37,970 nt of DNA from Chitinophaga pinensis (GCA_943323675.2 CALPIR020000001.1:1-37970); one strand, 5' to 3'. Counted from the first letter of the stretch, positions 1-18,359 are shown. Program-made: numbers and translations. The notes: generated by a model not told the origin, from the letters alone.

Positions 1-627
1 GAAAAAGGTGGGGTTTATGTGGTTGCTAATTTACGAGGCGGTGGCGAGTATGGTGAAGATTGGCACAAGGCGGGTATGCTTCATAATAAGCAAAATGTAT
101 TTGATGATTTTATTGCGGCAGCAGAGTTTTTAATTAAAGAGAAATACACCTCATCTGATAAACTAGCTCTTCATGGTGGAAGTAATGGTGGGTTATTGGT
201 TGGTGCGTGTATGACGCAAAGACCCGAGTTATTTAAAGTAGCTATTCCCGCTGTAGGTGTGTTGGATATGTTAAAATACCATAAGTTTACCATTGGTTGG
301 GGTTGGGCTGTTGAATACGGGAGCAGTGACAATAAAGAGCAGTTTGATTATTTAATTAGATACTCTCCATTACATCACGTTAAGTCTGGGGTAAATTATC
401 CAGCAACTATGATTATGACAGCGGATCATGATGACCGTGTTGTGCCTGCCCATAGTTTTAAATTTGCAGCTGAGTTACAAAGCAAACAATTACCAACAGG
501 GAATCCTGTATTAATTAGAATTGATAAAAAAGCGGGACACGGGGCTGGTAAACCTACCTCAAAATTAATTGAAGATGCCACAGACATGTGGAGCTTTGTA
601 TTGTGGAATTTAGGAATGAAATTTTAA
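1..627 (+). CDS. Prolyl oligopeptidase (S9A serine peptidase), C-terminal catalytic part; 5' end lies outside the window
   Basis: Frame 1 is open from nt 1 ([18 protein letters not shown]). It carries the catalytic Ser motif GGSNGGLL, the Asp region [16 protein letters not shown] and the His motif AGHGAGKP, all typical of prolyl endopeptidases. The stop is followed by a hairpin. Confidence 0.9.
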
Positions 628-642
628 AACTAAATTTTAAAT

Positions 643-684
643 AAAATGCCCCAATAGCTTATAGGTATTGGGGCATTTTGTTTT
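643..684. terminator. Bidirectional rho-independent terminator between convergent genes
   Basis: Perfect inverted repeat aaaatgccccaata (643-656) / tattggggcatttt (666-679) with a 9-nt loop. It is flanked by A-run and T-run and sits between the stop at 627 (+) and the stop at 683 (-). Confidence 0.8.
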
Positions 685-1189
685 AGTCTTTTATAGATTT
701 TGCCATTGTATCAAAATCAGATTTTAACGATTCTTTGTTTTTCAGCGCTGTCCAACACAGCGATTTATAAAAGTGGCCATTTGTTTCAGTGGCTGTAATG
801 AGCATGTAATAGTCACCTTCCTTATCTTTCCAAGTCAGCTCTATTTGCGCATGCTTATTGCCATTAGCCTCTGAGGTGGTAACAGAACCAAGTTTTCTTC
901 CTTTGGCATCTTTCATATAATCTTCGGTAAAAGAGTTTAAAAAGTCAGTAGGGTTGTTAAATTTCATCCCCAATGACTCCAAATGATCTTTTGCATCTTC
1001 AATTACAACCAGATAGGCATCTTTTATAGCACTTTGATATTGCAATAAAGCTACGTCATTTAAGTCGTATGCTTTAACCATATAGTCTGCAACGTTCATG
1101 GTAAAACAATGGCCACCAGTTTTGCTTGTAAATTGTGCATTAGCAGTAAATCCTAGTACCACAAAAATGCTTAAAAGTATTTTTTTCAT
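683..1189 (-). CDS. Secreted hypothetical protein (signal peptide)
   Basis: ORF-track ORF trimmed to the ATG at 1189, giving MKKILLSIFVVLGFTANAQ, a typical Bacteroidota signal peptide. It lies 19 nt downstream of the preceding gene. I recognise no family. Confidence 0.6.
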   Translation of the reverse strand: MKKILLSIFVVLGFTANAQFTSKTGGHCFTMNVADYMVKAYDLNDVALLQYQSAIKDAYLVVIEDAKDHLESLGMKFNNPTDFLNSFTEDYMKDAKGRKLGSVTTSEANGNKHAQIELTWKDKEGDYYMLITATETNGHFYKSLCWTALKNKESLKSDFDTMAKSIKD

Positions 1190-1208
1190 AAAGTATAAAT
1201 ATAATATA

Positions 1209-1760
1209 TTATTCAATAATAAGTTGGTATCTGTATAATAATCCGCTTAAATCATGGCGAGAGAATTTAGCCTTTTTAACACGATTCATAGCGGGATCTA
1301 TCATAAAATTAATGTTAGTTGTAAAGTCTACTGTTTCTATATTGGTTTGTTCGAACACCGCCTCACTAAAATCACAATTTGTTATTTTGGATAATGAAAG
1401 GTCTGTTTGGGTTAAGTTTACACCTTTCATTAAACAATCATTAAAACTACTTTTATTTAGTTTTTTCCTTTCAAAAGTTGCATAGCTCAGGTTACAATTT
1501 TTAGCTGTTATGCAAAAGCCAAAATCTTTAACACGGTTAAAATTTAATCCTATAAGTTTACAATCCTTAAAGAAGCATTCATTTAAAATACATAAATCAA
1601 TGTTTGCGTTACTAAAATTACAATTTATAAACTCACAATCGTTAAAGGTAATACCCTTTACGCTGTTAAAAATGCAATTAATAAACTCACAGTTTTCGTA
1701 TTCAATATCTTCTAATTTTTGCTCGCTAAAATCTAATTGCTTAAATTCTTGTTTGTGCAT
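1209..1760 (-). CDS. Pentapeptide-repeat protein (183 aa, MfpA/Qnr-like size and architecture)
   Basis: Continuous A(D/N)LXX-type pentapeptide periodicity (NCEFINCIFNSVKGITFNDCEFINCNFSNANIDLCILNECFFKDCKL...). The ATG at 1760 is 2 nt after the hutI stop. Confidence 0.85.
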   Translation of the reverse strand: MHKQEFKQLDFSEQKLEDIEYENCEFINCIFNSVKGITFNDCEFINCNFSNANIDLCILNECFFKDCKLIGLNFNRVKDFGFCITAKNCNLSYATFERKKLNKSSFNDCLMKGVNLTQTDLSLSKITNCDFSEAVFEQTNIETVDFTTNINFMIDPAMNRVKKAKFSRHDLSGLLYRYQLIIE

Positions 1761-1762
1761 TT

Positions 1763-3004
1763 CTAGTTTATTTTGGCTCCATTAATAATCACTGTCTCTA
1801 TCAAATCAACCCCAAAACTATAAGGGATAAAAGCCAGTGATGGTATTTGTTTTGTGATGATCACATTACCCAGTTTACCTTTTGTAATACTTCCGTGTGT
1901 ATGGCTTAATTCTAGTGCATATGCTCCGTTAATTGTAGTTGCATTAATAGCTTCTTCGGGTGTCAATTTCATTTGTGTGCAAGCTAAAGAAACTACAAAA
2001 CTCATACGTCCATTTGGCGATGATCCTGGATTGTAATCGCTGGCCAAACAAAACGGTAAACCTGCATCAATTATTTGCCTACCTGGCGCATAAGGTATGC
2101 CTAAAAAGAAAGAACAATTCGGTAATCCCACCGGCATTGTATTTCCGTTTTTTAAGCTGGTAATTTCTGCTTCTCCAGTATATTCTAAATGGTCAACGCT
2201 CAATGCTTGGTGTTTAACCGCAACCTGCACACCACCTGTATATCCAAGTTCATTGCCATGTATTTTTGCTTTTAAACCATATTGTTTCGCTGCAATAAGA
2301 ATTCGTTCAGTTTCATCCACAGTAAAAAATCCTTGGTCGCAAAATACATCACAATATTCAGCTAAATTTTCAGCTGCAACTTTTGGTAACATGTCATTTA
2401 GAACCAAATTAATGTATGCTTCTCGATTTTGTTTGTACTCGGTTGGTATGGCATGTGCGCCTAAAAAGGTTGCTTTAATGGTTATGGGCGAAATTGCTTT
2501 TAAACGTTTAATAACCCGCAACATTTTTAGTTCATCTTCAACAGTAAGCCCATAACCACTTTTTATTTCAATGGCACCTGTTCCAAATTTAATCACCTCA
2601 AACAACCTGGCTTTTGCACTTTCAAACAATTCGTCTTCACTCATGGCTTGAAGCTTTCCAGCAGAGTTTAAAATACCACCACCAGCTTCAGAAATTTCTT
2701 CATAACTTTTACCCTTGATACGCATCACAAATTCTTCTTCTCTACTTTTTGCATAAACAATATGCGTGTGCGAGTCAATAAAGCACGGTAATACATATCC
2801 ATTATTGGCATCAATCACTTCGGCTGTTGTTTCTGGCAGATCATTCATAACGCCAAAGTCTTTTATAATGCCATCGGTAATTAACAAATAGGCATTATCA
2901 ATGCTATCAAGCATATTCATTTCAGTACCCGATTTTTTTTGAATGGATACATTCTGTATTATTCCGTATAACGACTTTATGTTTTTAATAAGTACTGATT
3001 TCAT
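1763..3004 (-). CDS. hutI: Imidazolonepropionase (amidohydrolase superfamily)
   Basis: Motifs DSHTHIVYA, EAGGGILNS, IKSGYGL, FLGAHAIPTEY, DVFCDQGFF, SVDHLEY and LASDYNPGSSP match HutI. I set the start at the ATG at 3004 (MKSVLIKNIK...). The longer ORF-track N-terminus (to 3262) is low-complexity and overlaps the divergent gene. Confidence 0.9.
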   Translation of the reverse strand: MKSVLIKNIKSLYGIIQNVSIQKKSGTEMNMLDSIDNAYLLITDGIIKDFGVMNDLPETTAEVIDANNGYVLPCFIDSHTHIVYAKSREEEFVMRIKGKSYEEISEAGGGILNSAGKLQAMSEDELFESAKARLFEVIKFGTGAIEIKSGYGLTVEDELKMLRVIKRLKAISPITIKATFLGAHAIPTEYKQNREAYINLVLNDMLPKVAAENLAEYCDVFCDQGFFTVDETERILIAAKQYGLKAKIHGNELGYTGGVQVAVKHQALSVDHLEYTGEAEITSLKNGNTMPVGLPNCSFFLGIPYAPGRQIIDAGLPFCLASDYNPGSSPNGRMSFVVSLACTQMKLTPEEAINATTINGAYALELSHTHGSITKGKLGNVIITKQIPSLAFIPYSFGVDLIETVIINGAKIN

Positions 3005-3089
3005 ATCACAGGCAAATAACGAACATGTTGAATAATTTAAAAAATAAATGATACTTGGTTTAGTGCTCAAGTATTTACTTTGTATAATA

Positions 3090-3608
3090 ATGAAAGATCT
3101 ACAACTAATTTTACAAACACCCGTAAAAATGGGTAATGATGTTTGGATTGCAGACACTGCGCGCGTTTTTGGATTGGTAACTTTAGGTGATGAGTGTTCG
3201 GTATGGTTTGGGGCTGTATTGCGTGGCGATGGTGATTTTATTACCGTTGGAAACCGAAGCAATATCCAAGAAAATGCCGTTGTTCACGTTGATCCAGGTT
3301 TTCCGACCCAAATTGGTAATGATTGTATTGTTGGTCATGGCGCAATAGTGCATGGAGCAAAGCTTGGAAATCATGTACTGGTAGGCATGCATGCAACGGT
3401 TTTAAACGGAGCAACGGTAGGTAATTTTTGTATAATTGGTGCTCATGCACTGGTAACTGAGGGGATGGTAATACCTGATTACAGTATTGTTATGGGTGCT
3501 CCTGGAAAGGTGGTAAAGCAATTATCTCCCGATCATATCGAAAAAGTGAAACGAAATGCGCAATCATATGTTGATCTAAGTAAGGAATATTTGAAGTATT
3601 GGAAATAA
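3090..3608 (+). CDS. Gamma-class carbonic anhydrase-like left-handed beta-helix (hexapeptide repeat) protein, YrdA/PaaY family
   Basis: Contains VWIADTARVFGLVTLGDECSVWFGAVLRGDGDFITVGNRSNIQENAVVHVD...IGHGAIVHGAKLG, with hexapeptide periodicity and the His-containing motifs of the gamma-CA family. Start set at the ATG at 3090 (MKDLQL...). Confidence 0.85.
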   Translation: MKDLQLILQTPVKMGNDVWIADTARVFGLVTLGDECSVWFGAVLRGDGDFITVGNRSNIQENAVVHVDPGFPTQIGNDCIVGHGAIVHGAKLGNHVLVGMHATVLNGATVGNFCIIGAHALVTEGMVIPDYSIVMGAPGKVVKQLSPDHIEKVKRNAQSYVDLSKEYLKYWK

Positions 3609-3730
3609 CCAGTGGATTTACATTATAGTCTAGTAAGCAATTCAAATATTTATAAAGATCTTTCTTCTCTATCATATTAATTGTTCTAAATGTATATTTA
3701 TCACGTAAAATTGCAGTCTCAATTTTATAC

Positions 3731-5476
3731 ATGAAAATACTAGTTACTTACCTTAAGCGATACAAAAAATTAGTTGGCTTATCCATGTTATTTGCCACCA
3801 TTAACCAGGTTTTCTCTTTACTCGACCCACTAATTTATGGAAAAATAATTGACCAATACGCCCAACATGCATCATCTTTTACCCAAAGTCAATTTATAAA
3901 AGGAGCAGGGTTATTAATTTTAGCGGCTATTGGCGTAGCTATGGTAAGTCGTATTGCAAAGGCATTTCAGGATTATACCGTTAACTTGGTAATACAAAAA
4001 TTAGGTGCAGATATATACACTGATGGATTAAAACATACATTACAAATTCCGTTTAGCGAGTTCGAAGATCAACGTAGTGGCGAAACTTTAAACATTTTAC
4101 AAAAGGTAAGGATCGATACTGAAAAGTTTATCATGAGTTTTGTGAATATTCTTTTTGCCTCGCTTGTGGGTATCGTGTTTGTGATGATATACGCTATAAA
4201 TGTACATGGTGGATTAATTGTTATTTATGTTGTTGCTGCAACATCGTTAAGTGTTATTACCAACTATTTATCAAAACGTGTAAAAAAAGTACAAACAAAT
4301 ATTGTTCGTGAAACACGCATGCTTGCTGGAAGTACAACTGAAAGCCTGCGTAATATTGAATTGGTGAAAAGTTTAGGTTTAACAAACCAAGAAACAAACC
4401 GATTAAATTCAGCAACAAAAAAAATATTGCAATTAGAGTTAAAAAAGGTTCGCGATATACGTAGTATTTCTTTTGTACAGGGTACTTTGGTTAACTTACT
4501 TCGTCAGTCTATATTATTTATGCTTTTGTATTTAATTTTTGAAGGACAATTGAGTGTAGGCGAAATCATTACGTTACAATTTTATTCTTTCTTTATTTTT
4601 GGCCCTTTACAAGAGGTGGGTAACGTAATCATCAGTTACCGTGAGGCAGAAGCTTCGTTGGCTAATTTTGAGCAAATTATGAATACGCCTTTAGAGCCTA
4701 AGCCGAATTCACCAAAGCAACTCGGTGCTATACAAATCATGAAATTTAGCGAGGTGGTATTTAGGCACAAGTCTGCCGGATATGATGCAGTTAGTAAAAT
4801 TAGCTTTGATGTAAATAAGGGTGAAACCATTGCTTTCGTTGGCCCAAGTGGAAGCGGAAAAAGTACTTTGGTTAAATTGTTGGTTGGATTGTATTCGCCA
4901 AATTCGGGTAGTATTTTGTATAACAACATTCTTTCAACCGATATTGATAAAGATGAACTGCAGCAGCAACTTGGCTTTGTTACACAAGATACCCAATTGT
5001 TTTCGGGTACTATAAAAGAGAATTTATTGTTTGTTAAACCTAATGCAACAGATACAGAGTTGGAAGAAGTGTTGGAAAAATCCGCTTGCAGCAATATTGT
5101 AAATCGTAGCGAAAATGGCTTAGATACTATGATAGGAGAGGGAGGAATGAAATTAAGTGGTGGCGAAAAGCAACGTTTGTCAATTGCACGTGCATTGCTA
5201 CGTAATCCGCGTATTATGGTTTTTGATGAGGCAACCTCAGCACTCGATTCTATTACAGAGGCATCTATTTCAGATACCATTAAAAACATTTCAGATAAGA
5301 AGGATAGTATAACAGTTTTAATAGCACATCGATTATCAACCATTATGCATGCCGATAGGATTTTTGTGCTAGAAAAGGGCGTTGTAATTGAAACGGGTAA
5401 ACACCAAGATTTATTAAATGAAAAAGGGTTGTACTATGCCATGTGGCGTCAGCAAATTGGTGAGCGTAGGGAATAG
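3731..5476 (+). CDS. ABC exporter, fused permease/ATPase (MsbA/multidrug type)
   Basis: N-terminal 6-TM domain. Walker A GPSGSGKST, signature LSGGEKQR, Walker B IMVFDEATSALD, H-loop IAHRLST. Confidence 0.9.
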   Translation: MKILVTYLKRYKKLVGLSMLFATINQVFSLLDPLIYGKIIDQYAQHASSFTQSQFIKGAGLLILAAIGVAMVSRIAKAFQDYTVNLVIQKLGADIYTDGLKHTLQIPFSEFEDQRSGETLNILQKVRIDTEKFIMSFVNILFASLVGIVFVMIYAINVHGGLIVIYVVAATSLSVITNYLSKRVKKVQTNIVRETRMLAGSTTESLRNIELVKSLGLTNQETNRLNSATKKILQLELKKVRDIRSISFVQGTLVNLLRQSILFMLLYLIFEGQLSVGEIITLQFYSFFIFGPLQEVGNVIISYREAEASLANFEQIMNTPLEPKPNSPKQLGAIQIMKFSEVVFRHKSAGYDAVSKISFDVNKGETIAFVGPSGSGKSTLVKLLVGLYSPNSGSILYNNILSTDIDKDELQQQLGFVTQDTQLFSGTIKENLLFVKPNATDTELEEVLEKSACSNIVNRSENGLDTMIGEGGMKLSGGEKQRLSIARALLRNPRIMVFDEATSALDSITEASISDTIKNISDKKDSITVLIAHRLSTIMHADRIFVLEKGVVIETGKHQDLLNEKGLYYAMWRQQIGERRE

Positions 5477-5487
5477 AAAATATTTTA

Positions 5488-5520
5488 AAAGGGTCGGATT
5501 TAATCGACCCTTTAGTTTTT
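5488..5520. terminator. Bidirectional rho-independent terminator (end of the ABC gene and end of the dab-sulP-porin operon)
   Basis: Inverted repeat aaagggtcg (5488-5496) / cgacccttt (5505-5513) with an A-run upstream and agttttt downstream. It lies between convergent stops at 5476 (+) and 5519 (-). Confidence 0.75.
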
Positions 5521-6814
5521 AAATCGCAATTTGGAATTGCACAACCATCATGCCCTTATTAGATGTTTGTTTTAAACTTGTTGTGTTTATAATCGGTCTA
5601 CTTTGGTAGTTTAAACTAACTTTAGAGCGTTGTCCATCAATAAGCCAGTTAACGCCTATGTCCCACATACCTGTTGTACTTTTTAACCTATCGTACTTGG
5701 CCAAAGTTAAATCGGCATAAGGTTGAATTCTGTTCTCATCTGTGTTATTTTTTTTAGGTAATAGGTATCCTATTTGAGCAAACAATGTATTTCCTGTTCC
5801 GTACATAGCAAAACTATTTCCACCCCCACTTAATGTATTTCCTGTATTAATATTGGCAGGGTTTAACACACCATTATTTCTGATGTAATTTTTTCCGTAA
5901 TCTGTTTTTGACGCTGCAGCATACAAGGTTAATACACTGCCGTTGTTTTTTATAGGCTGTTCAAAAAACACATCAACTCCTAAATTAAATAATTTCTGAT
6001 GGATGATGTTTTTACTCAAAGTATCTGCATAATGCCACATGGCATCTGTTTGATATTGAAAACCTGCTCCAAATGTCAGCACTTTTTTCTTGCCTAAATA
6101 AGTTCCCGACATGTATGGTGTAACATTGCTTTCTTCATCCCAAAACTGATACATTAAATAGCCACTTGTTTGCAACTTAGGGGCATTGTAAGAAAAGTCT
6201 GAATTTAAATTTATAGCTTTGACTGAAGATATACTTGCATCAATCATTAGGGGTTTTGATAGTGCGAATCTATAATCAAACTTATCTATTTTACCCTTTG
6301 CATATACACTTAGTTTGCGCAAAAATTGGTCGTTTACATCATTAGTTGATTGTTGGTACAATGGTATATCATAACCCAATATATTTGCAGCTGATGGCGC
6401 TGCATAACGCGAAAAACCAGACCAGCCAGTTAAGCCTGTTCCTAAATGAAACAATTTCTGAGTTGGTTGATATTCTGTTACGACATCATGAAAAAATAGA
6501 CCTGGTTTACGTGAAGAATTGTATCCATAGTTATTAATACCCAATTGGGTATACATAAAAACTTTATCAGAAATTTTCCCCATTAACTGTAAACGAACCC
6601 TTCGCAATCCAACGTCAAATGTTTCATTTTCGGATTTGCCATTAATGGTTGTTCCTGGATTGTTATGTGTATATCTGGTCCAAATTTGCGCTGTAAAGTT
6701 GGCTTTTAAATAATGTGTTCCAGTTTCATTTAGACTTAATTTAAGCTCTTTTTTTTGAGCATAAAGCAACAATGCGCTTGCGCTTAACACTGCAGTTAAA
6801 AAAATGGTTTTCAT
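5519..6814 (-). CDS. Outer-membrane beta-barrel porin (anion/phosphate-selective-porin-like), last gene of the dabAB-sulP operon
   Basis: Signal peptide MKTIFLTAVLSASALLLYAQ, alternating amphipathic beta-strand pattern, aromatic-rich C-terminal strand (MMVVQFQIAI), and the segment DVGLRRVRLQLMGKISDKVFMYTQLG reminiscent of porin O/P-type proteins. It starts 9 nt after the SulP stop. Confidence 0.65.
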   Translation of the reverse strand: MKTIFLTAVLSASALLLYAQKKELKLSLNETGTHYLKANFTAQIWTRYTHNNPGTTINGKSENETFDVGLRRVRLQLMGKISDKVFMYTQLGINNYGYNSSRKPGLFFHDVVTEYQPTQKLFHLGTGLTGWSGFSRYAAPSAANILGYDIPLYQQSTNDVNDQFLRKLSVYAKGKIDKFDYRFALSKPLMIDASISSVKAINLNSDFSYNAPKLQTSGYLMYQFWDEESNVTPYMSGTYLGKKKVLTFGAGFQYQTDAMWHYADTLSKNIIHQKLFNLGVDVFFEQPIKNNGSVLTLYAAASKTDYGKNYIRNNGVLNPANINTGNTLSGGGNSFAMYGTGNTLFAQIGYLLPKKNNTDENRIQPYADLTLAKYDRLKSTTGMWDIGVNWLIDGQRSKVSLNYQSRPIINTTSLKQTSNKGMMVVQFQIAI

Positions 6815-6823
6815 ACAGTGGTT

Positions 6824-8482
6824 TTATTTTTTATTTGAAAACTTACGTGTGGCAAATGGATGTTTTGATAAAGCGGTGTGGTTCTCAAGGCCAATGATCT
6901 CGAATTCTCCACCGTCTTCTTCGTATCTTCTTGCCATCTGGTTGATTTGCTCCATTACGGTATGATCTATTAGTTTTACTCCAGTAAAATCGACCAAAAC
7001 ATTTTTGCCAGGAGGCAATTTTTCCAGTTGTTTTTTCATTCCAATATAATTGCTAAAAACTGCAGAATGCGCCACATCAATTGTATATAGATTTTGATCG
7101 GCACTCACATTAATGGTTAAAAATGGTTTAAATATACTTTTAAAAGGTACCCCATTAATAATGTGAATAATCATTTTAACTATAATGCCCACGGCTATAC
7201 CAATAAGAAGATCTGTTGCTAAAGTAGCAACAATTGTTGATATAAAGATGAAGAGTTGCTCCTTTCCAATTTTTAGTGTTTTTATAAATTCTTTTGGTGA
7301 TGCTAGGCGATAACCAGTAACCATAAGCATAGCAGCTAGCGCGGCTAATGGTATTTGGTGAATAACTTGGCTTAAGAATAATATAAACACCAATAAAAAC
7401 CCTCCATGAAAAAAATTAGCCCAACGTGTTTTTGCTCCATTATTTACATTGGCAGAACTACGCACAACTTCTGCTATTATAGGTAAGCCACCTAACATAG
7501 ATGATAATATGTTTCCCGAACCCTTAGCAAATAATTCTCGGTTAAAATTTGATTGTCGTTTAAATGGATCTAGTTTGTCTATAGCGGCTGCAGTTAACAG
7601 TGATTCTAAACTTGCCACTAGAGCATAGGTAATCATCATTTGAAATCCAAAAGAAGTAAATAAATAATCAAATCTCGGCATTATTATTCCGTCCAAAATA
7701 TTTGATGGAAGTGTAACTAAAAACTTTGGCCCTAATAAATATTCATGGCCATTTAAAAACAGGTATTTATGTTCATGTTCTAAATCAAAATAATGACCTA
7801 GTGGTATAGCAATTAATATTACTAATAAAGGGGCTGGGATCATTTTTACATATTTATTTTTAATTAGTGGTAATCCAATTAATATAATAAAACTCAATGC
7901 AGCAATAATGGCAACATCAGGATTCATGTTAATTATACTATGAGGAATTTCTGTGATTACTTCCAGCATATCCTTTCCTTGTGGTTTAACGCCTAATGCG
8001 GTGTGGAATTGTTTGGCAAAAATCATAATACCAATAGCAGCAAGCATACCATGTACAACCGAAGAAGGGAAAAAATTACTAAGAACACCTGCTTTAATTA
8101 ATCCAAATAAAATTTGAATTACACCACATCCAACACCAACAGCTAGGGTACATTGGTATGCAAACATTTCAATTTGATCTGGAGTTAAACCTTCTGGTGC
8201 TATTTTTTTAAAGCCTTCAATACTCATTAAAACAATAACGGCTAACCCTGCAGCTGGACCGTTAATAGTTAAGTGTGATCCGCTAGATAAAGACAATAAT
8301 AAACCGCCAACTACACCTGCAATTATGCCGGCCATAGGAGGTACACCACTTGCCATAGCTATACCTAAACACAATGGCAATGCGATTAGTGAAATAATAA
8401 AACCTGACAGTAAATCAGTTTTCCAATTTTCTTTTAGTCCTGCTAATCCATCAGCAGGTATATTTTTTTTAAATAAATTCAT
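6824..8482 (-). CDS. SulP-family inorganic anion transporter with C-terminal STAS domain (BicA/DauA-like)
   Basis: N-terminal DLLSGFIISLIALPLCLGIAMASGVPPMAGIIAGVVGG...INGPAAGLAVIV is the SulP signature region. It has about 10-12 TM segments and a C-terminal STAS-like domain (VLVDFTGVKLIDHTVMEQINQMARRYEEDGGEFEIIGL). It starts 15 nt after the dabB stop. Confidence 0.92.
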   Translation of the reverse strand: MNLFKKNIPADGLAGLKENWKTDLLSGFIISLIALPLCLGIAMASGVPPMAGIIAGVVGGLLLSLSSGSHLTINGPAAGLAVIVLMSIEGFKKIAPEGLTPDQIEMFAYQCTLAVGVGCGVIQILFGLIKAGVLSNFFPSSVVHGMLAAIGIMIFAKQFHTALGVKPQGKDMLEVITEIPHSIINMNPDVAIIAALSFIILIGLPLIKNKYVKMIPAPLLVILIAIPLGHYFDLEHEHKYLFLNGHEYLLGPKFLVTLPSNILDGIIMPRFDYLFTSFGFQMMITYALVASLESLLTAAAIDKLDPFKRQSNFNRELFAKGSGNILSSMLGGLPIIAEVVRSSANVNNGAKTRWANFFHGGFLLVFILFLSQVIHQIPLAALAAMLMVTGYRLASPKEFIKTLKIGKEQLFIFISTIVATLATDLLIGIAVGIIVKMIIHIINGVPFKSIFKPFLTINVSADQNLYTIDVAHSAVFSNYIGMKKQLEKLPPGKNVLVDFTGVKLIDHTVMEQINQMARRYEEDGGEFEIIGLENHTALSKHPFATRKFSNKK

Positions 8483-8497
8483 GTTATATATTTTTAA

Positions 8498-10366
8498 TTA
8501 TGATGAACGATATGGTCTGTTTAATGGTTCTTTAATATAGGGGCCTAAGAAAATTCGGGAATACATTCTTACAAGTGTAATTCCATCTAAAATTATACTT
8601 ATCGAAACCAACGATGCCAATAAAAGTTGATTTTGATGAATATGACTAAATAATAGATCTTCACCGATAAATGTTGCTGTAATAGGGAATCCTGACAACC
8701 CTAAACAGGCCATTAAAAATATAAAGGCTGTTTTCGGATATGGTATGGCATACCCATAAAAGTTATTCAGATCTATGTTTTTTTCTTTTCTTTTTAAAGT
8801 GTGAAGACAAGCATATCCAACTGCTCCCGAAACGATAACACCACTCATGTAAATAATTGCATCTTGCGCGTTAAATTGTTCGTTATACGAAACTGATAAT
8901 ACTAAGAATGCATGATTCATTATAATCATAAACCACGCGATGTATACATTATTACGCTCTATGAATGATTTTAATACCAGTTTTAAGCCTACTGCGGCAA
9001 GTATTATCGACATGTAGTTTTTTATCGAAGCTGGTATTAATTGTTGATGATATAACACATAAATAGCCGTAACAAAAAGTATTGTATATACAATAATGAT
9101 TTGGTTTATTTTAAGGAAGTCTACTTTTTTACCTAATGTTTTAAGTGTTCCCCATACATATCTATACATATACCAATCGAGGTTAAACTCTTTTATACTT
9201 AAAACGTAGATAGTATCCTTTATTCTTTTTTGCCAATTAGGAATTGATTTGTGAACTGGTTTTTCAAAATGATAAAACTGCTCTTTAATTAAATAACTAA
9301 CCAACGAAGGAGATACCAAGAGCTGATAGGTGCGTAAAAAGGCATTGCCTGCAAAATGTATTAATGCTATAATATGCCAACCACATGCAACTTCAATAAA
9401 AATAATGCCTATTTGTGCTGCTGATGAATATGCAATTTGACTTTTAACAGATGATTGAACCCTTGCTGTTAAGGTAGTAATTATAGCAGTACTTAATCCC
9501 AATAAAGCTATTATAATTCGAACTGAATATTGGTGTTCCCAAAAGGTGTATGTTCTGAATAGCAAGAACACTCCAATATGAACAGATAACGAACCATAGA
9601 AGATTGCACTTGATGGTGTTGGTCCTTCCATAGCTCGAGGAAGCCACGATGAGAAAGGAAGTTGAGCTGATTTAGCAGCTGCTGCAATTAAAATAGTTAG
9701 TGAAATAAATACACCCACAGCACTATGGCTCTGTAGTTGCTCATGCACCAAGTTATAGTTGTTTAATTTAATAAATGTAATATTTTCATGCCATAAATGA
9801 TGGCTCATCCACATGGCTAATAAAATCCCTATATCACCTATGCGATATATGCTAAAAACTTTTATCCCATTTTTAACAGGTAAATATCTATGACGATAAA
9901 ATGCTATTAACAAGAAAGATGATATACCTAAAATTTCCCACCCTAAAAATAAGGTTTCGAAATTACCTGACAATACAGTAATGCTATACCCAGTAAAAAA
10001 AAATAATATGGTGTTGAAATATCTTTTGTATCCTGTTTCTCTGTGTAAGTAGTACCTACTGTATACCGTTACCATTAATGTTAGTATTGAGCCAACAAGC
10101 AAGTATACTAAACTGATTAAATCAAAGTAAAAATCAATAGCAAACACATAATGTTTTGATTGATAAATTACCAATTCACTAATGTTTAATGCTTGATGCT
10201 CGTTTAGTAGCCAAAATATACTGAATGCGATAAGTAACAGGGTATTTAACGCAATACCTATGAATGCCGTGTACGATATAATTACTTCCTTTTTTTCGGG
10301 AATAAATAGGCTAATTATAAATGCAGCAAAAGGAATTAAAATAAATAATTGAATAAATTGTTCCAT
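8498..10366 (-). CDS. dabB: DabB: NuoL/Nad5/MrpA-like proton-conducting membrane subunit (PF00361-type), partner of DabA
   Basis: Polytopic membrane protein with GWEILGISSFLLIAFY and AAAKSAQLPFSSWLPRAMEGPTPSSAIFYGSLSVHIGVFLL motifs, including the conserved Glu and Lys of antiporter-like subunits. No other complex I or Mrp subunit is in the window. The ATG is 3 nt after the dabA stop. Confidence 0.88.
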   Translation of the reverse strand: MEQFIQLFILIPFAAFIISLFIPEKKEVIISYTAFIGIALNTLLLIAFSIFWLLNEHQALNISELVIYQSKHYVFAIDFYFDLISLVYLLVGSILTLMVTVYSRYYLHRETGYKRYFNTILFFFTGYSITVLSGNFETLFLGWEILGISSFLLIAFYRHRYLPVKNGIKVFSIYRIGDIGILLAMWMSHHLWHENITFIKLNNYNLVHEQLQSHSAVGVFISLTILIAAAAKSAQLPFSSWLPRAMEGPTPSSAIFYGSLSVHIGVFLLFRTYTFWEHQYSVRIIIALLGLSTAIITTLTARVQSSVKSQIAYSSAAQIGIIFIEVACGWHIIALIHFAGNAFLRTYQLLVSPSLVSYLIKEQFYHFEKPVHKSIPNWQKRIKDTIYVLSIKEFNLDWYMYRYVWGTLKTLGKKVDFLKINQIIIVYTILFVTAIYVLYHQQLIPASIKNYMSIILAAVGLKLVLKSFIERNNVYIAWFMIIMNHAFLVLSVSYNEQFNAQDAIIYMSGVIVSGAVGYACLHTLKRKEKNIDLNNFYGYAIPYPKTAFIFLMACLGLSGFPITATFIGEDLLFSHIHQNQLLLASLVSISIILDGITLVRMYSRIFLGPYIKEPLNRPYRSS

Positions 10367-10369
10367 TTG

Positions 10370-12877
10370 TTATGCTCCTATTAAATGTACTGGAATATTT
10401 TCGCCTGATGACAAGATCAACTCGTACATCTTATCTGCTTTGGGTATCTTAATTTCAAATGGCTCGTAGGTATCAAATCTTCCTTTATTGTATCTAAAAA
10501 ATTCGCCATTTTCTGGATTAACTACAACCAGATTAATCCATTCATTTTCAAACCATGCTGAGGTTTCTGCTGATTGATCAAGTGTTTGTTTAACCACATC
10601 GGGTAAATGTTCAATTACCATTAATAACCTAATTGGATTGTGCACTTCTATCATTTGCGAGGGTAATCCTGGACGTATATCTCCATCTATGCCGTTTGCA
10701 ACACCAACCAAACCCATTACATTATGAGGTAGTTTACTGCCTGCACCTAACTTCTGGTTATCAACTCTAGAAAAATAATACTCTAAATTAATGCCACCGC
10801 ATACAGGTGCTGCCGCCTTTAGTATGTTTAACAGCCATTTACCTTCAGGGTCAATTTTGTAATCATAAGAGTTCATAAAAGCGCGTCTGTCTAAAAATAT
10901 GCCATGCGTAATCTCCCTTCTACCTATTATGCATAAGCTATTGGTTGCATGGTTAAGTTCTGGTCGTGGTTCAAATAGAGAAACAGATCGTGTTTTAATT
11001 TTTTCATGTACATATTTTGCAGGTTTTTTTGTATTTACAACTTCAAACCTGCGTGATCGTTCTCTCGCGTTCTCATCTAATGCGTTGTTAAATGTGTGTT
11101 TGTTTTCTCGGTGAAGATAAATGTGTTTTTCACGTAGGTTTTCTTCATCATAAAAAACCATTTCATCTCTTGTGGTATCATGTAAAGCGGCAATAAACAC
11201 CGTATTAACTGGAATGTTTATTCCTGCTATTTTAAGTATTTCTCTAACCTCTGTGTTGTTTGCCATTTGGCAAAAAACACGTGCATTAACTGAACCAGGT
11301 CTGCCACTGCAAGCACCGCAATCATATGCAGCATAATGAGGATTATTTACACTGCTAGAACCATGACCAATAACATATACAATTGGTGCAAAATCATGAA
11401 TTAAACCAATGCTTTTTAATACGGCCTCCAATCTATTTGCCATTTCTATTTGTGAAAAACCAACTTGTAAATTATGCAGATTGGGTTGATTAGGATGGTA
11501 TTCAACTGTAAGTTTAGATAGTTTTTCCATATGCCTTAATGAGGTTGCTGTGGCCGGACTCATGGAAGGTTTAAACAAGTTAACGCACAATCTTAATGCC
11601 GACCAAAACCCTAATGTTTGAGAAATAAGCCAACCTGTAACTAAATTATGTGAGTGCTTACTTAAGTGTACATCTTTATCTATCGTTCTGCTGCTATCAT
11701 ATTCCTTTATTAAAAATTTAGGAGTAATTGGTACTGGACATGATTTGGTTAAGAATTTACCATGCTCAGGTTGATAATAGAATTCAACACCAAAGTGGCC
11801 GGGAGTCCCAAAAGTTTCGCATTTATTGTTTAACTGTTCAACATGTCTTCTTATAGAGCATTCCCTATCATCTATACAAAATAATGCTTGAAAGCTTTTA
11901 TCTTTAATTGATATAGATTTTGTTGATGGAATACTATTTTGTTTTACAGCGCAAAGAATGCTATCGTAATATGTCCACTCGTAGGCTTCTTGCCACATAT
12001 TAACTAATTCTTGATATTCGCTTTTATCAATTGCAGCAAAAAGGCTAGTTGGAGCCATTTCAACTTTTTCAGATATCGGCTTCCAATTGTTTCCTAAATA
12101 AAAGGTGAGTGCGTCAATTTCTAAAAGTAATTCAAATGCTATAAAATCATGAAGTGTTATGTTGCGCTTATCAAGTAAAGTTTCTGGTTGATCTTCTATT
12201 GTAGCCACTAATCCAGACCAACCTGGATGACTAAATTGTTGATCGAAAAGATAATTTTCAAACCACATTTCATCTCCAACCACTATGTGCAGCAATGCAG
12301 GTAACTTACATTGAGAGTGTAGTAATAAATTTCTAGCGCGTTCAGTTTTAAAGAAACTAACATGGCTATTACGCTCAAGCTCACGTAGAGATGAAAGAAA
12401 TCCTTTGTGCTCAATTGGAAAATTATCAATAGCAATCCCTTGGTCAAGATAGCTGCATAATATCCTAAATAATAAAGGCTGAATCTGATTATCTAAATCA
12501 ATTCTAAAGGAGTCTTTCCAATACGCACGTAGCTTGCCAATTCTTATGTCGCATGTTGGTTTAATTGATTTGTTTAACATTTTCTCTTTCCATTCAACTA
12601 AACAATTTGCTCCTTTATATTTAATAATAACATTGTTTAGTATCTTATCATTAATTTCATTTTTCCCATATAAGTCATGGTACTCGATTAAAGTTAGAAA
12701 AGTATTAAATCCGAATATTTCAGTTGCCTGATTTAACCCATCAATAAAGTTTAAGTGTTGAAATGCATGTAAAGTATTATGATGTACAAAGTCTTTTAAT
12801 GGTGCCTGACTTGGCAAATAATGCTTGAGATTGTGCAGCACATGCTCTTCTGCAAATGCCGATTTTTTTATATCCAT
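10370..12877 (-). CDS. dabA: DabA: DUF2309-family inorganic carbon pump subunit with beta-carbonic-anhydrase-like metal site
   Basis: 835 aa. Motifs seen: LKDFVHHNTLHAF near the N-terminus, FCIDDRECSIRRH (CxDxR), VIGHGSSSVNNPHYAAYDCGACSGRPG, GGINLEYYFSRVDNQKLGAGSKLPHNV. Size, motif order and pairing with a NuoL-like gene fit DUF2309/DabA (MpsB). Confidence 0.9.
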   Translation of the reverse strand: MDIKKSAFAEEHVLHNLKHYLPSQAPLKDFVHHNTLHAFQHLNFIDGLNQATEIFGFNTFLTLIEYHDLYGKNEINDKILNNVIIKYKGANCLVEWKEKMLNKSIKPTCDIRIGKLRAYWKDSFRIDLDNQIQPLLFRILCSYLDQGIAIDNFPIEHKGFLSSLRELERNSHVSFFKTERARNLLLHSQCKLPALLHIVVGDEMWFENYLFDQQFSHPGWSGLVATIEDQPETLLDKRNITLHDFIAFELLLEIDALTFYLGNNWKPISEKVEMAPTSLFAAIDKSEYQELVNMWQEAYEWTYYDSILCAVKQNSIPSTKSISIKDKSFQALFCIDDRECSIRRHVEQLNNKCETFGTPGHFGVEFYYQPEHGKFLTKSCPVPITPKFLIKEYDSSRTIDKDVHLSKHSHNLVTGWLISQTLGFWSALRLCVNLFKPSMSPATATSLRHMEKLSKLTVEYHPNQPNLHNLQVGFSQIEMANRLEAVLKSIGLIHDFAPIVYVIGHGSSSVNNPHYAAYDCGACSGRPGSVNARVFCQMANNTEVREILKIAGINIPVNTVFIAALHDTTRDEMVFYDEENLREKHIYLHRENKHTFNNALDENARERSRRFEVVNTKKPAKYVHEKIKTRSVSLFEPRPELNHATNSLCIIGRREITHGIFLDRRAFMNSYDYKIDPEGKWLLNILKAAAPVCGGINLEYYFSRVDNQKLGAGSKLPHNVMGLVGVANGIDGDIRPGLPSQMIEVHNPIRLLMVIEHLPDVVKQTLDQSAETSAWFENEWINLVVVNPENGEFFRYNKGRFDTYEPFEIKIPKADKMYELILSSGENIPVHLIGA

Positions 12878-12971
12878 GAAAATAGAATAAAATAAAATAA
12901 TAAATAGGAATTGAGACGATGGCTGTGGTTCGCTATCGTTTTAGCGTGGTTAGCGCCAAAGCATAAAAATC

Positions 12972-13307
12972 CTAAATAGTTAGCCGACTAACTAGCAAAT
13001 ATTTCGGGAATATACTCGCTTTATTCAGTTGGAAAATGAGAGCTCTAAGACGCGTATTTACTGACGCACAACTCAATGAGTTAAACCCAAAAAGTAAAAT
13101 GAATATTAAACCTAAAGAAGATATTTCTATTTTAATATTTCCATCTTCTATCTCTATATCTTCAGATAATAAGAGAGGTATGCTATGATGTGTGTTTTTT
13201 ACAGAATGGTGGTATACTTTAGCAAAAGGAGTTCCTACCTTTGATAACAAAGGATTGACTAAAATTAGTAGTGAAAAAACTAGAATTAAACTTTTGCGAA
13301 AAATCAC
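12972..13307 (-). CDS. Hypothetical small membrane protein (GTG start), upstream of dabA
   Basis: 111-codon ORF filling most of an otherwise non-coding 555-nt gap. It has an N-terminal hydrophobic segment (LILVFSLLILVNPLL), a His-rich stretch (YHHSVKNTHHS) and a second TM (LGLIFILLFGF). It has a non-ATG start and no recognisable family, so coding status is uncertain. Confidence 0.35.
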   Translation of the reverse strand: MIFRKSLILVFSLLILVNPLLSKVGTPFAKVYHHSVKNTHHSIPLLLSEDIEIEDGNIKIEISSLGLIFILLFGFNSLSCASVNTRLRALIFQLNKASIFPKYLLVSRLTI

Positions 13308-13432
13308 AATTCAAATATAACTTATTTCGGATATACATTTCATTTTTATGCGAGTTTTAATACAGTAAATTTTAGGGTAGGTTTAGTAGCCATCAACTAA
13401 TATCTTATCTTCACGGCCTAGTATATAAACAG

Positions 13433-14806
13433 ATGTACAAAAAATATAAACCCTATTTTACTCAAATTTTAAGACTTAGTTACCCAATTATTATAGGCCA
13501 AATTGGTATAGTTTTGATGGGTGTTGCAGATGTTGTCATGATTGGTAATATTAATGCCACTAATTTGGCGGCAGCTGGTTTAGCCAACTCTGTATATTTT
13601 CTGGTTTCAATCATTGGTATAGGAACTTTATCTGCAGTATCTCCAATAGTTGCCAAAGCAAAAGGTGCTGGGCATGTCAACGAAACGGCTTTGTTACTCA
13701 GGCAAAGTATCTGGGCATCGCTAACATTAAGTATTTTTATTGTAGCTATTTTATACATACTAACAATAAATCTTGAGTGGTTCGGGCAGAGCGAAGAGGT
13801 TACCGTGCTAACAAAATCATACCTTCATATATTAAACGGAGGTACTGTTTTTATGTTATTGTTTACTGCTATAAAACAGTTTAGTGATGGATTATCTATA
13901 ACCAAGCCATCTGCTATTATTACCATATTGGGCTTGGCGCTTAACGTATTTTTAAATTGGGTTTTAATTTATGGAAAGTTTGGTTTACCTGCTTTAGAAC
14001 TTGATGGAGCAGGTTATGCTACTTCTTTTACCCGATTGCTAATGGCATCGGCTATGTTAGCTTTTGTTTTAAGGGGTAATATATATAAACCTTGGCTTAA
14101 AATAAAAGAGCATATCGGGGGTTTAAGTTTATTCAAAGATATTTTTCGCATAGGGTTGCCATCGGGTATGCAATATTTTTTTGAGGTTGGTGCATTTGCA
14201 TCTGCAGCTATTATGATAGGGTGGTTTAGTAAAGAGCAACTAGCTGCCCATCACATCGCCATTAACCTTGCATCAGTTACCTATATGGTTGCTACAGGGT
14301 TATCAGCAGGAGGTGGTATTGCCGTTGGAGATGCTTGGGGGCGCAAGAATAAAACAGACCTGATTATGTCGGGTAAGGCAGCATTGATTATGAGTGTGTT
14401 ATTTATGGGAAGCACTGCATTGTTATTTGCTGTATTTAACACCTTTTTTGTTAGTTTATATATTGATGATGTTTTGGTTGGAGGAATGGCAGCAAACCTT
14501 CTTTTAATTGCAGCGTTATTTCAACTAAGTGATGGTGTACAATGTGTTAGTTTAGGTATTTTACGTGCAATCAATGATACTAAAATGCCAACAGTTTTTA
14601 CTGTTATAGCTTATTGGGTAATTGGTATTCCAATCGGTTGGTTATTGGCAAAATATTTTGATTTAGGATTATACGGAATTTGGTTTGGTTTAAGTCTAGG
14701 GTTAACTTACTCAGCAATTATTTTAAGCCGTAGGTTTTTAAAAGAATCGCGGGAGTTCGATTTTGTGAAAGCAGAACAACAGCACTTTAACGATCTTATC
14801 AATTAA
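13433..14806 (+). CDS. MATE-family efflux transporter (NorM/DinF-like)
   Basis: 457 aa with 12 predicted TM segments and a two-fold internal repeat. The N-terminus (ILRLSYPIIIGQIGIVLMGVADVVMIG) is typical of MATE proteins. Confidence 0.9.
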   Translation: MYKKYKPYFTQILRLSYPIIIGQIGIVLMGVADVVMIGNINATNLAAAGLANSVYFLVSIIGIGTLSAVSPIVAKAKGAGHVNETALLLRQSIWASLTLSIFIVAILYILTINLEWFGQSEEVTVLTKSYLHILNGGTVFMLLFTAIKQFSDGLSITKPSAIITILGLALNVFLNWVLIYGKFGLPALELDGAGYATSFTRLLMASAMLAFVLRGNIYKPWLKIKEHIGGLSLFKDIFRIGLPSGMQYFFEVGAFASAAIMIGWFSKEQLAAHHIAINLASVTYMVATGLSAGGGIAVGDAWGRKNKTDLIMSGKAALIMSVLFMGSTALLFAVFNTFFVSLYIDDVLVGGMAANLLLIAALFQLSDGVQCVSLGILRAINDTKMPTVFTVIAYWVIGIPIGWLLAKYFDLGLYGIWFGLSLGLTYSAIILSRRFLKESREFDFVKAEQQHFNDLIN

Positions 14807-16638: not shown

Positions 16639-18345
16639 ATGCAGCAACACGTACATTCTATAGCCATAACTTGTGGTTTACTTGGCATTAAACATGTGGT
16701 AATCAGCCCTGGATCTCGGTCTGCACCCTTAGTTTTGGCTTTTGCCCAGCATACAAATTTTATTATTCATGTAGCAATTGACGAGAGGTGTGCTGCTTAT
16801 ATGGCCTTGGGAATGGCCCAACAAAAACAAATTCCCGTTGTACTTATTTGTACTTCTGGTACAGCTGTGGCCAATTATTACCCTGCTATAACCGAAGCTT
16901 TTTACCAAAAAATACCGCTTTTAGTGCTTACAGCTGATCGCCCTGAGGATTTACTTGACCAACAGGATGGACAAATGATTAACCAGAAAAACCTATTTGG
17001 ACACCACGTAAGGGCTTTTTATCAATTAAATTGTTACCCTCATGGATCTGAAAATAACCGTGAAACAACAGTTATAGTTGCCGAAGCAATCGGGTTAACT
17101 ACATTCCCCGCAAAAGGGCCAGTACATATTAATGTACCTTTAAAAGAACCCCTTTACCCCAAATCACTTTTACCTAATCACATCCGAAAACTTGAAAAAA
17201 GTATTCTCAATTGGTTAAACCATCATGTTTACAAGCCAATAGACGGCATTTCTAACAATGATTTTATTGAACTTGAACAAGCATGGATAAGTGCATCAAA
17301 AAAAATGATTTTAATAGGGCAGGGAGCAATGCACGAAAAATGGATTACACCTTTATTGGCATTAAAGAATCAAGCAGATGTGGTAATTATTGCAGATGTT
17401 GTGAGTAATAAACATGCTATGGCCAATGTGCACCATGTAGATAAATTACTTAGTGCGGTTGATAGTAAAACGCTAAAAGAACTATCGCCAGATTTACTGA
17501 TTAGCTTTGGTGGACCTATATTGTCAAAAAGCCTTAAAAATTGGTTAAAGCAACAAAAACCTTCTTGGCATTTTCGTATTCAACAAGAGCCTGAGCAAAT
17601 TAACACATATAATAATGTTACCAAATTTCTGAGAGCTACTGTTGATGAAACATTACAACAGATAGCAGCAATTAAGTTGAATCAAAATCCTGAGGCAATG
17701 TTTATGAATAAATGGATTAAAGCTTCTTTTGACATAGAAAAAAAAATAACTGCATTTGCAAAAAAACCAATATGGAGTGAGTTGCACGCAACGTATCATT
17801 TATTAAACCATGTTCCTGATTGTTCTAATTTACAATTGGCTAATAGCAGTGTTGTGCGTTATGTTAGTTGGCTTGATATGTTAAATGAAAGTTGGATTAT
17901 AAATAGCAATAGGGGAACCAGTGGTATAGATGGGTGCACAAGCACAGCACTGGGTGCTGCAAAAGTAAATTTAAGGCAAACTGTATTACTAACTGGTGAT
18001 ATTGCATTTTTGTACGATAAAAATGCGTTTTGGTTGAATGAAATTCCACAGAATTTACGTGTAGTTGTATTTAATAATGGAGGCGGTGGAATATTTACTT
18101 TAATTGACGGACCAACTTATCATAAACAGTTTGCACATTTGTTTACTACACCGCATCAACGCAATGTAAAATCTGTTGCTGTTGATAATGGATTAGATTA
18201 TTACTTTTGCGAATCTTACAGCAATTTAAATAAAGTACTTACTCAGTTTTTTGAACCAACAAATGGTGCTGCAGTTTTAGAATTAAAGTTTGATATGAAG
18301 AAAAACGCAAAAATATTTGAAGCATTTAAAAAGATAAAACTATAA
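16639..18345 (+). CDS. menD: 2-succinyl-5-enolpyruvyl-6-hydroxy-3-cyclohexene-1-carboxylate synthase (ThDP enzyme)
   Basis: 568 aa. N-terminus GIKHVVISPGSRSAPL, LTADRP motif, and ThDP-binding GDIAFLYDKN...VVVFNNGGGGIF. Confidence 0.9.
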   Translation: MQQHVHSIAITCGLLGIKHVVISPGSRSAPLVLAFAQHTNFIIHVAIDERCAAYMALGMAQQKQIPVVLICTSGTAVANYYPAITEAFYQKIPLLVLTADRPEDLLDQQDGQMINQKNLFGHHVRAFYQLNCYPHGSENNRETTVIVAEAIGLTTFPAKGPVHINVPLKEPLYPKSLLPNHIRKLEKSILNWLNHHVYKPIDGISNNDFIELEQAWISASKKMILIGQGAMHEKWITPLLALKNQADVVIIADVVSNKHAMANVHHVDKLLSAVDSKTLKELSPDLLISFGGPILSKSLKNWLKQQKPSWHFRIQQEPEQINTYNNVTKFLRATVDETLQQIAAIKLNQNPEAMFMNKWIKASFDIEKKITAFAKKPIWSELHATYHLLNHVPDCSNLQLANSSVVRYVSWLDMLNESWIINSNRGTSGIDGCTSTALGAAKVNLRQTVLLTGDIAFLYDKNAFWLNEIPQNLRVVVFNNGGGGIFTLIDGPTYHKQFAHLFTTPHQRNVKSVAVDNGLDYYFCESYSNLNKVLTQFFEPTNGAAVLELKFDMKKNAKIFEAFKKIKL

Positions 18346-18359
18346 ATTAAAATAACAAT

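Follow-up and report, generated by a model that had tools for sequence, protein, structure and literature searches.

In a 37,970-nt stretch of DNA deposited under Chitinophaga pinensis (GCA_943323675.2, CALPIR020000001.1:1-37970; hereafter, the window), we analyzed a minus-strand operon that joins the genes of a DAB-type CO2-hydrating complex (dabA and dabB) to a gene for a SulP-family transporter and to a gene for a predicted outer-membrane porin. A scan for open reading frames (ORFs) returned the same coordinates that a first-pass annotation, made from the sequence alone, had given for four co-directional genes, with gaps of 3, 15, and 9 nt at dabA/dabB, dabB/sulP, and sulP/porin, respectively. 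That annotation had overlooked a small ORF at the head of the cluster, and the operon comprises five genes, i.e., those for the small protein, DabA, DabB, SulP, and the porin (Table 1).

Table 1. Features of the five-gene operon, with positions counted from the first nucleotide of the window
Feature	Position	Strand	Product	Basis or remark
Intrinsic terminator hairpin	5488..5513	.		Common to the operon and a convergent ABC-transporter gene (3731-5476, +)
Porin gene	5519..6814	-	431 aa	ORF scan
sulP	6824..8482	-	552 aa	ORF scan, PF00916
dabB	8498..10366	-	622 aa	ORF scan, PF00361 + PF00662
dabA	10370..12877	-	835 aa	ORF scan, PF10070
94-nt A/T-rich spacer, small ORF to dabA	12878..12971	-		Fold z-score -0.97, no Rfam match
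Small ORF (GTG start), first gene of the operon	12972..13307	-	111 aa	Conserved ORF + HMM
Bacteroidota-type -7 box TATATTTG (TAnnTTTG)	13312..13319	-		4 nt upstream of the small-ORF GTG

The operon ends at a terminator whose strength was borne out by RNA folding (10 pairs, 5 of them G-C; dG = -13.6 kcal/mol; z = -3.26), and on the operon strand the hairpin is followed by the U-rich tail UUUUAAAAUAUUUU; the convergent neighbor that shares it is predicted to encode an ABC exporter. At the other end, TATATTTG is an exact TAnnTTTG, the consensus of Bacteroides promoters, which we take to be the -7 box of Bacteroidota, and we infer that it serves as the promoter of the operon. The box aligns in three related loci (L002, L003, and L004), as it does in L030, where it precedes the porin gene, and an exact copy stands within -150 to +60 of the ORF start in 30 of the 40 loci with the small ORF versus 11% of background windows. 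A sigma-70 promoter scan, which returned 44 sites against 40.8 expected, was uninformative, as this is the wrong promoter type for Bacteroidota, and TAnnTTTG was used instead. Given the fifth gene and the motif upstream of it, the transcription unit would therefore begin ~430 nt upstream of dabA.

The sense strand holds no exact TAnnTTTG between 13311 and 6285, a span that takes in the spacer, dabA, dabB, sulP, and the beginning of the porin gene, although the density across the window predicts ~6 by chance; this absence over ~7 kb may reflect purifying selection against internal promoters or a composition effect. The internal terminator candidates were weak, lay inside coding sequence, had poor tails, and were not credible. 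Because there is one conserved promoter motif, no other exact box on the sense strand of that span, and one strong terminator, the five genes likely form a single transcription unit, and the most economical reading is one transcript running from ~13305 to the terminator at ~5488. The single transcript of the first-pass annotation is thus likely, with five genes in place of four, and of the internal promoters or terminators that it had named as able to break the unit up, the span above showed no exact box and the cluster no credible hairpin. Its structured leader in the spacer upstream of dabA was not supported: folding of 12868-12990 gave the z-score listed in Table 1, with 32 of 200 shuffles folding equally well or better, and a permissive Rfam scan of 12700-13600 found no family, only two chance snoRNA matches, and we rejected a leader or riboswitch there.

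DabA matches PF10070 (DUF2309/DabA) over profile positions 2-747 of 747 (E = 1.8e-214, 714.8 bits). In the PDB, it aligns with DabA2 of Halothiobacillus neapolitanus (9rd0_A, E = 1.2e-55) across residues 324-791, and its C334, D336, H505, and C520 fall on C351, D353, H524, and C539 of that protein, which we take to be the zinc-site residues; their roles were reportedly described by Desmarais and colleagues in 2019. Because all four residues of this Cys-Asp-His-Cys set are kept, the alignment identifies DabA as the beta-carbonic-anhydrase-like catalytic subunit of a DAB/DAC complex, with a predicted intact catalytic zinc site. The adjoining gene product carries PF00361 and PF00662, i.e., the signature of NuoL/MrpA-type cation-translocating membrane subunits, and scores 135 bits against ND5/NuoL chains in the PDB and 92 bits against DabB2 (9rd0_B). 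We name it DabB because of its obligate pairing with dabA, which dabB directly follows here and accompanies in all related loci. Both identities proposed at first pass are upheld by these matches.

The H. neapolitanus DabA2-DabB2 complex (PDB 9rd0; PMC13144422) shares with the window operon the PF10070-type DabA, the zinc-site residues, and the arrangement in which dabA is directly followed by a gene for a NuoL-type DabB, and energy-coupled vectorial CO2 hydration is presumed to be common to both. The two DabA proteins are nonetheless only distantly related; their alignment covers the segment given above.

The assignment of the next gene to the SulP family was sustained by PF00916 (E = 2.2e-62, residues 21-416), and the STAS domain claimed along with it gave only a weak C-terminal match (STAS_2, E = 4.7e-4, 20.7 bits, under the gathering score of 29.2); an alignment to SLC26Dg extends to residue 535. 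All of the NCBIfam scores fall below their cut-offs: 179 bits for sulP, 169.1 bits for the DauA C4-dicarboxylate equivalog (NF008660, cut-off 614), and 113.9 bits for the BicA equivalog (NF050096, cut-off 880). In addition, the protein is roughly equidistant from two PDB entries, scoring 88 bits against SLC26Dg, a fumarate transporter, and 79 bits against BicA. With cyanobacterial BicA (PDB 6ki1) and with SulP-carbonic anhydrase pairs and fusions it has in common the SLC26/SulP fold with a putative STAS region and, as in such pairs, its relatives can adjoin a beta-carbonic anhydrase (L025 and L036). It differs in not being a BicA orthologue and in having DabAB and the porin as its partners; relatives at 41-80% identity adjoin the porin and/or dabAB in many loci.

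The last gene of the operon was assessed by structure prediction. An AlphaFold2 model built from a 42-sequence alignment is a beta-barrel with an N-terminal signal helix (predicted local distance difference test [pLDDT], 84; predicted template modeling [pTM] score, 0.81), and the signal peptide covers approximately residues 1-19. The best PDB matches of this model in Foldseek are OprO and OprP, the anion-specific pyrophosphate and phosphate porins of Pseudomonas aeruginosa (4rjx, 2o4v, and 4rjw; E ~8e-11; TM scores, 0.56-0.59), which rank above general porins at 12-13% sequence identity. PF07396 (Porin_O_P) is matched at 21.9 bits (cut-off, 20.9) over residues 62-127 only, with no stretch passing alone, the ExtI porin model (NF040900) scores 69 bits against a cut-off of 150, and the family profile found no PDB sequence at E <= 1; the fold comparison alone gave the link. 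OprP and OprO are of similar size (411-426 aa), and the ~21 basic (Arg/Lys) versus 9 acidic residues among the invariant and nearly invariant columns of the family alignment suggest an anion preference. The genomic partners differ, as the window porin stands with inorganic-carbon genes in contrast to the pst/pho genes of OprP/OprO. Homologues number 1318 at 90% clustering, all of them "hypothetical" and without a Pfam domain, and fall into 689 clusters at 50% identity. On the strength of the model, we are confident that the protein is, as the first-pass annotation held, an outer-membrane beta-barrel; it would represent an unannotated Bacteroidota family with an OprO/OprP-like fold. The resemblance is one of predicted fold, and membership in the OprP/OprO family is not established.

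At its N terminus, the small protein has a hydrophobic anchor or signal; its middle is acidic (SEDIEIEDG), and the motif FPKYLLVSRLTI lies at its C terminus. By tblastn, the small ORF was found in near-identical contigs only and thus at first looked spurious. A counterpart of 110-145 aa and the same design lies just upstream of dabA in almost every related locus, and the C-terminal motif of these relatives aligns as P-[LVK]-[YFW]-[LID]-x-x-[RKH]-x-[LFIW]-x-[IL] or ...LY.LF.(S/C/N)WK.HL(S/L). A hidden Markov model (HMM) built from 24 seeds and run on 2821 small ORFs from 109 loci and the window gave 43 matches at E < 1e-3, of which ~19 were non-seed; all 43 lie on the sense strand, nearly all at the head of a cluster. 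Furthermore, the gene calls of 11 public contigs include this exact sequence. Because of the equivalent upstream ORFs, the sense-strand HMM matches at cluster heads, and these gene calls, we conclude from sequence conservation that the small ORF is a real gene. No model in Pfam or NCBIfam matches it, and a profile search of 5.8 billion proteins returned 16 significant matches, all unnamed, for a family that is too divergent and short for the tool. We also considered and rejected an identity as HYC_CC_PP (NF047658): hhalign gave a probability of 1.5% over the C-terminal 16 residues only, and neither the window ORF nor 8 relatives had an NCBIfam match at E <= 1, whereas a true HYC_CC_PP neighbor scores 5e-37. 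The likeness is confined to the C-terminal motif.

With the aim of following the linkage across related genomes, as the first-pass annotation had proposed, we used DabA to seed a scan of one genome per GTDB species. This yielded 24 loci, nearly all from metagenome-assembled genomes (MAGs) of Bacteroidota (Flavobacteriia, Cytophagales such as Algoriphagus, Chitinophaga-like bacteria, and Bacteroidia). DabA, DabB, SulP, and the porin are all linked in 13 of the 19 loci with enough flank, and this linkage holds down to ~50% DabA identity and 37% porin identity. A porin-seeded metagenome scan contributed 80 further loci, and individual protein look-ups five more. In the porin-seeded set, the linked SulP subfamily adjoins the porin in 20 (~38%) of the 52 loci with >2 kb on both sides, 14 of the 38 whose flanks both exceed 7 kb contain dabA, and four more short contigs end in a SulP C terminus just upstream of the porin.

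Gene order varies among these loci. Writing x for the small ORF, A for dabA, B for dabB, S for sulP, P for the porin, and b, a, and l for beta-, alpha-, and LCIB-type carbonic anhydrases, the order of the window, x-A-B-S-P, is the most common. Others are x-A-B-S-b-P, x-A-B-x-S-P, P-S-A-B (L018), A-B-P-S (L022), x-S-P-A-B (L081 and L089), P-x-A-B (L109), and x-S-P (L057, L068, and L096), as well as the short orders P-S, x-P, x-P-a, and l-P. Adjacency has survived repeated reshuffling, which argues for selection on co-location or co-expression and not for inherited synteny. The linkage of DabAB, SulP, and the porin that had been noted in the window is therefore a recurrent one. Two of the loci carry duplications: L011 has two tandem dabA copies (392-6010; 55% and 54% identity to the window DabA) with a copy of the small ORF between them, and in L009 the small ORF recurs between dabB and sulP (14374-14763) and an OprB-family porin follows the main porin.

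Six of the 19 DabA loci do not have this porin, and they include three that hold another predicted beta-barrel. In L006 (6033-6776) and L020 (16161-16928), where the 431-aa porin is missing, a DUF2490 protein stands beside SulP, and in L016 (9555-10514) a DUF5777 protein is encoded two genes downstream of SulP, past a Rieske-domain ORF. These cases suggest that Bacteroidota SulP proteins may generally be paired with an outer-membrane partner.

Carbonic anhydrases of other classes also stand beside the porin. In L025/L026 (Peijinzhouia sedimentorum) and in L036, a gene for a beta-carbonic anhydrase separates sulP from the porin gene, and in L061 the porin gene is followed after 59 nt by one for an alpha-carbonic anhydrase that carries a signal peptide. 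In L027/L028, a gene for an LCIB-type carbonic anhydrase (PF18599, E = 4e-75) is directly upstream of the porin, with EamA and MATE genes kept ~7 kb upstream, and it looks from this layout as if the enzyme replaces DabAB-SulP. Collectively, four unrelated kinds of CO2/HCO3- enzyme, together with SulP, recur beside the porin, and the beta-, alpha-, and LCIB-type neighbors support an independent tie of the porin family to inorganic carbon, as judged from gene neighborhoods. The EamA-MATE locus that also flanks the window operon was found in two further arrangements: with the LCIB-type carbonic anhydrase and porin in L027 (9189-11317), where an RND efflux cluster separates these from MATE, and with the porin alone, straight after MATE, in L030 (6381-9293). 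From these two loci, DabAB-SulP therefore looks like a cassette that can be exchanged between a conserved promoter and the porin. A single further case is L103, a locus with neither SulP nor Dab genes, in which the gene directly upstream of the porin (7041-7898) is AccD-like by eye; AccD is the carboxyltransferase beta subunit of acetyl-CoA carboxylase and belongs to a bicarbonate-consuming pathway.

Taking the operon as a whole, we consider it moderately probable that it encodes an envelope-spanning module for the acquisition of bicarbonate and CO2 that feeds carboxylases in its host, a freshwater bacterium of the Bacteroidota that is probably heterotrophic. The OprP-like porin, which is probably anion-selective, would let bicarbonate through the outer membrane, CO2 would diffuse freely, and SulP would carry HCO3- over the inner membrane. 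DabAB would use a cation gradient to hydrate cytoplasmic CO2 to HCO3-, trapping external CO2 as well as CO2 that leaks back or stems from respiration. The resulting HCO3- pool would feed bicarbonate-dependent carboxylases, e.g., pyruvate or phosphoenolpyruvate carboxylase, acetyl-CoA carboxylase, and carbamoyl-phosphate synthetase, and the small, membrane-anchored acidic protein might act as an accessory or regulatory factor. Lower pH favors DACs and higher pH favors SulP bicarbonate transporters (PMC10880623), a partition that fits a two-route system, and the description of Flavobacteria as dependent on anaplerotic fixation of HCO3-, with annotated transporters of the SulP type (PMC3595038), also fits the model.

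Several points weigh against such a module. SulP comparisons with the PDB and NCBIfam, being equidistant and sub-threshold, give no assignment of its substrate. The anion selectivity of the porin is predicted from fold similarity (TM ~0.57 at the low identity given above) and conserved basic residues. The host's carboxylases and lifestyle lie outside the 38-kb window, and the sequence does not dictate whether transport runs inward or outward. In all, 32 of the 52 porin-seeded loci with >2 kb on both sides have no adjoining SulP or Dab gene, the neighbors of these unlinked porins are heterogeneous, and linked and unlinked porins are interspersed in a neighbor-joining tree (without bootstrap). 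In L030/L031, moreover, a 77%-identical porin directly follows the same MATE gene and promoter box without DabAB-SulP.

These last observations are what one would expect if the protein were a general or housekeeping anion porin residing where DabAB-SulP cassettes insert, so that linkage would reflect synteny and a shared promoter and there would be no dedicated bicarbonate channel. Over half of the well-flanked porin loci are without inorganic-carbon genes, the family looks like a single orthologous group, and not only L030/L031 but also L027 keep the EamA-MATE-(promoter)-porin layout in the absence of DabAB-SulP. We nevertheless regard this explanation as unlikely: adjacency is kept through at least five different gene orders, three unrelated classes of carbonic anhydrase stand beside the porin in different lineages, and other beta-barrel families take the place beside SulP where the porin is missing. 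In addition, with few SulP genes among several thousand genes, chance adjacency to SulP should, we estimate, be <1%, against the 38% observed. What does not survive is the "dedicated" porin of the first-pass annotation. Because of the unlinked loci, the interspersed tree, and the L030/L031 loci at the same MATE/EamA position, the porin is, on the evidence of these neighborhoods, a widespread Bacteroidota porin that has been recurrently recruited into inorganic-carbon clusters and not an exclusive DAB subunit.

A second explanation turns the transport outward and assigns the operon to pH homeostasis. DabAB would hydrate respiratory CO2 to H+ and HCO3-, the bicarbonate would exit through SulP and the porin down the membrane potential, and the retained protons would load the cell with acid in alkaline lake water. 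DabB does belong to the Mrp/NuoL family, which is used in alkaline pH homeostasis, an inside-negative potential is established to favor anion efflux, the near-identical MAG L002 ("RE-16jun15-135") appears, from a reading of its label only, to come from a freshwater reservoir, and the sequence itself would allow this direction. An export scheme of this kind is without precedent, however, and a cytoplasmic beta- or LCIB-type carbonic anhydrase, as found in the same clusters, would be futile for it. All characterized DAB/Mps systems, furthermore, raise intracellular HCO3- and rescue CO2-dependent growth (PMC6689103; PMC13144422). We consider outward transport improbable.

We are equally doubtful that SulP and the porin form an uptake pair for sulfate, or for another oxyanion or a dicarboxylate, that is merely co-transcribed with DabAB. 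SulP scores highest against the generic sulfate permease, DauA, and the fumarate transporter SLC26Dg, and the closest named relatives of the porin serve phosphate (OprP) or belong to a selenite/tellurite operon (ExtI). Set against these scores, no sulfur-assimilation genes occur in the window or in related clusters, and the recurrent partners are DabAB and carbonic anhydrases. According to work that Felce and Saier are said to have presented in 2004, SulP-carbonic anhydrase pairing is the classical signature of bicarbonate-type SulPs.

An HMA-domain protein (with a signal peptide and CxxC), a TonB-dependent receptor, and an HYC_CC_PP protein are encoded just upstream of the small ORF and porin, or of the entire DAB cluster, in one porin clade (L045, L048, L051, L064, L070, L071, L073, L083, L084, and L088); we read this neighborhood as lineage-specific synteny, with a metal link possible. 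That the small protein and the porin serve a zinc or metal economy, and cluster with zinc enzymes through metal supply and not through carbon, would agree with these neighbors, with the acidic stretch of the small protein, and with the established fact that the linked enzymes are all zinc enzymes, but it is very improbable given that the metal-gene neighborhood occurs in only one clade of the porin tree, as a single synteny event would explain, that SulP is not a metalloprotein, and that homology of the small ORF to HYC_CC_PP received next to no support from hhalign.

Returning to bicarbonate and CO2 acquisition, we extend it from the operon to the family as a tentative proposal, plausible to us but short of probable: the porin family would constitute a bicarbonate-conducting outer-membrane channel, perhaps acting together with the small leader protein, and Bacteroidota would combine it with SulP, DabAB, and/or carbonic anhydrases to build modular whole-envelope systems of inorganic-carbon acquisition.

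Known systems share parts of this arrangement. The described DAB operons are two-gene units of autotrophic Proteobacteria (DAB1 lies in carboxysome loci), unlike the window operon, a five-gene Bacteroidota unit that also encodes SulP, a small leader protein, and an outer-membrane porin. In the non-autotroph Staphylococcus aureus, the DAB homologue MpsAB provides HCO3- for growth at atmospheric CO2 (PMC6689103), and the same logic is proposed here; being from a Gram-positive bacterium, MpsAB has no outer-membrane component, and no SulP partner has been described for it. The CO2-concentrating sets of cyanobacteria (BicA, SbtA, CmpABCD, and the NDH-1 CO2-uptake complexes) combine HCO3- transport with energized CO2 hydration in a single organism and thereby cover both species of inorganic carbon, as we propose for this operon, but their components are encoded at separate loci, the described toolkit has no outer-membrane channel, and the window holds no evidence of RuBisCO or carboxysomes. 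In the literature on DabA, DabB, DUF2309, and MpsAB in combination with porin, outer membrane, and Bacteroidetes, we found no description of a DAB-linked porin, in agreement with the first-pass annotation, and neither a 2024 review of the dissolved inorganic carbon (DIC) toolkit nor the 2026 paper on the DAB2 structure mentions a porin or an outer-membrane component. DabAB and the SulP family are known; what is new is a conserved Bacteroidota extension of DAB with two families that match no curated profile.

Among the other genes of the window, a hexapeptide protein resembling gamma-carbonic anhydrase (3048-3608, +; 138 bits against the NCBIfam gamma-CA model, cut-off 250) is encoded on the opposite strand ~1.9 kb past the operon terminator, and its position close to the operon is retained in L002 and L003; it may be one more gene for inorganic carbon, or its presence there may be coincidental. 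A thiamine pyrophosphate enzyme (TPP_enzyme_M_2 middle domain) followed by an enoyl-CoA hydratase-family protein (16639-19184, +) looks like menD-menB of menaquinone synthesis, unrelated to the operon. The contig of L001 (CAZJFO010000079.1), which matches the window at 100% identity across MATE, the small ORF, dabA, and dabB, was deposited as an "uncultured Neisseria sp." MAG; its gene content, ~35% G+C, and relatives are all those of Bacteroidota, and the Neisseria label is probably a binning or labeling error.

Studies of DAB/DAC complexes and of SulP bicarbonate transporters go no further than the inner membrane and center on autotrophs, and the DIC toolkit as described does not include the passage of HCO3- over the outer membrane. 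The operon offers a testable candidate for this missing step, with culturable carriers such as Peijinzhouia sedimentorum (GCA_050171395.1) available for genetics, and the porin would be of use in equipping Gram-negative chassis for bicarbonate uptake. If the proposal for the porin family is true, bacterial pathways of inorganic-carbon uptake would gain their first dedicated component in the outer membrane, one that sits in heterotrophs rather than autotrophs. For the organisms themselves, the operon points to a strong demand for inorganic carbon, in anaplerotic and biosynthetic carboxylation, among abundant freshwater and marine Bacteroidota.

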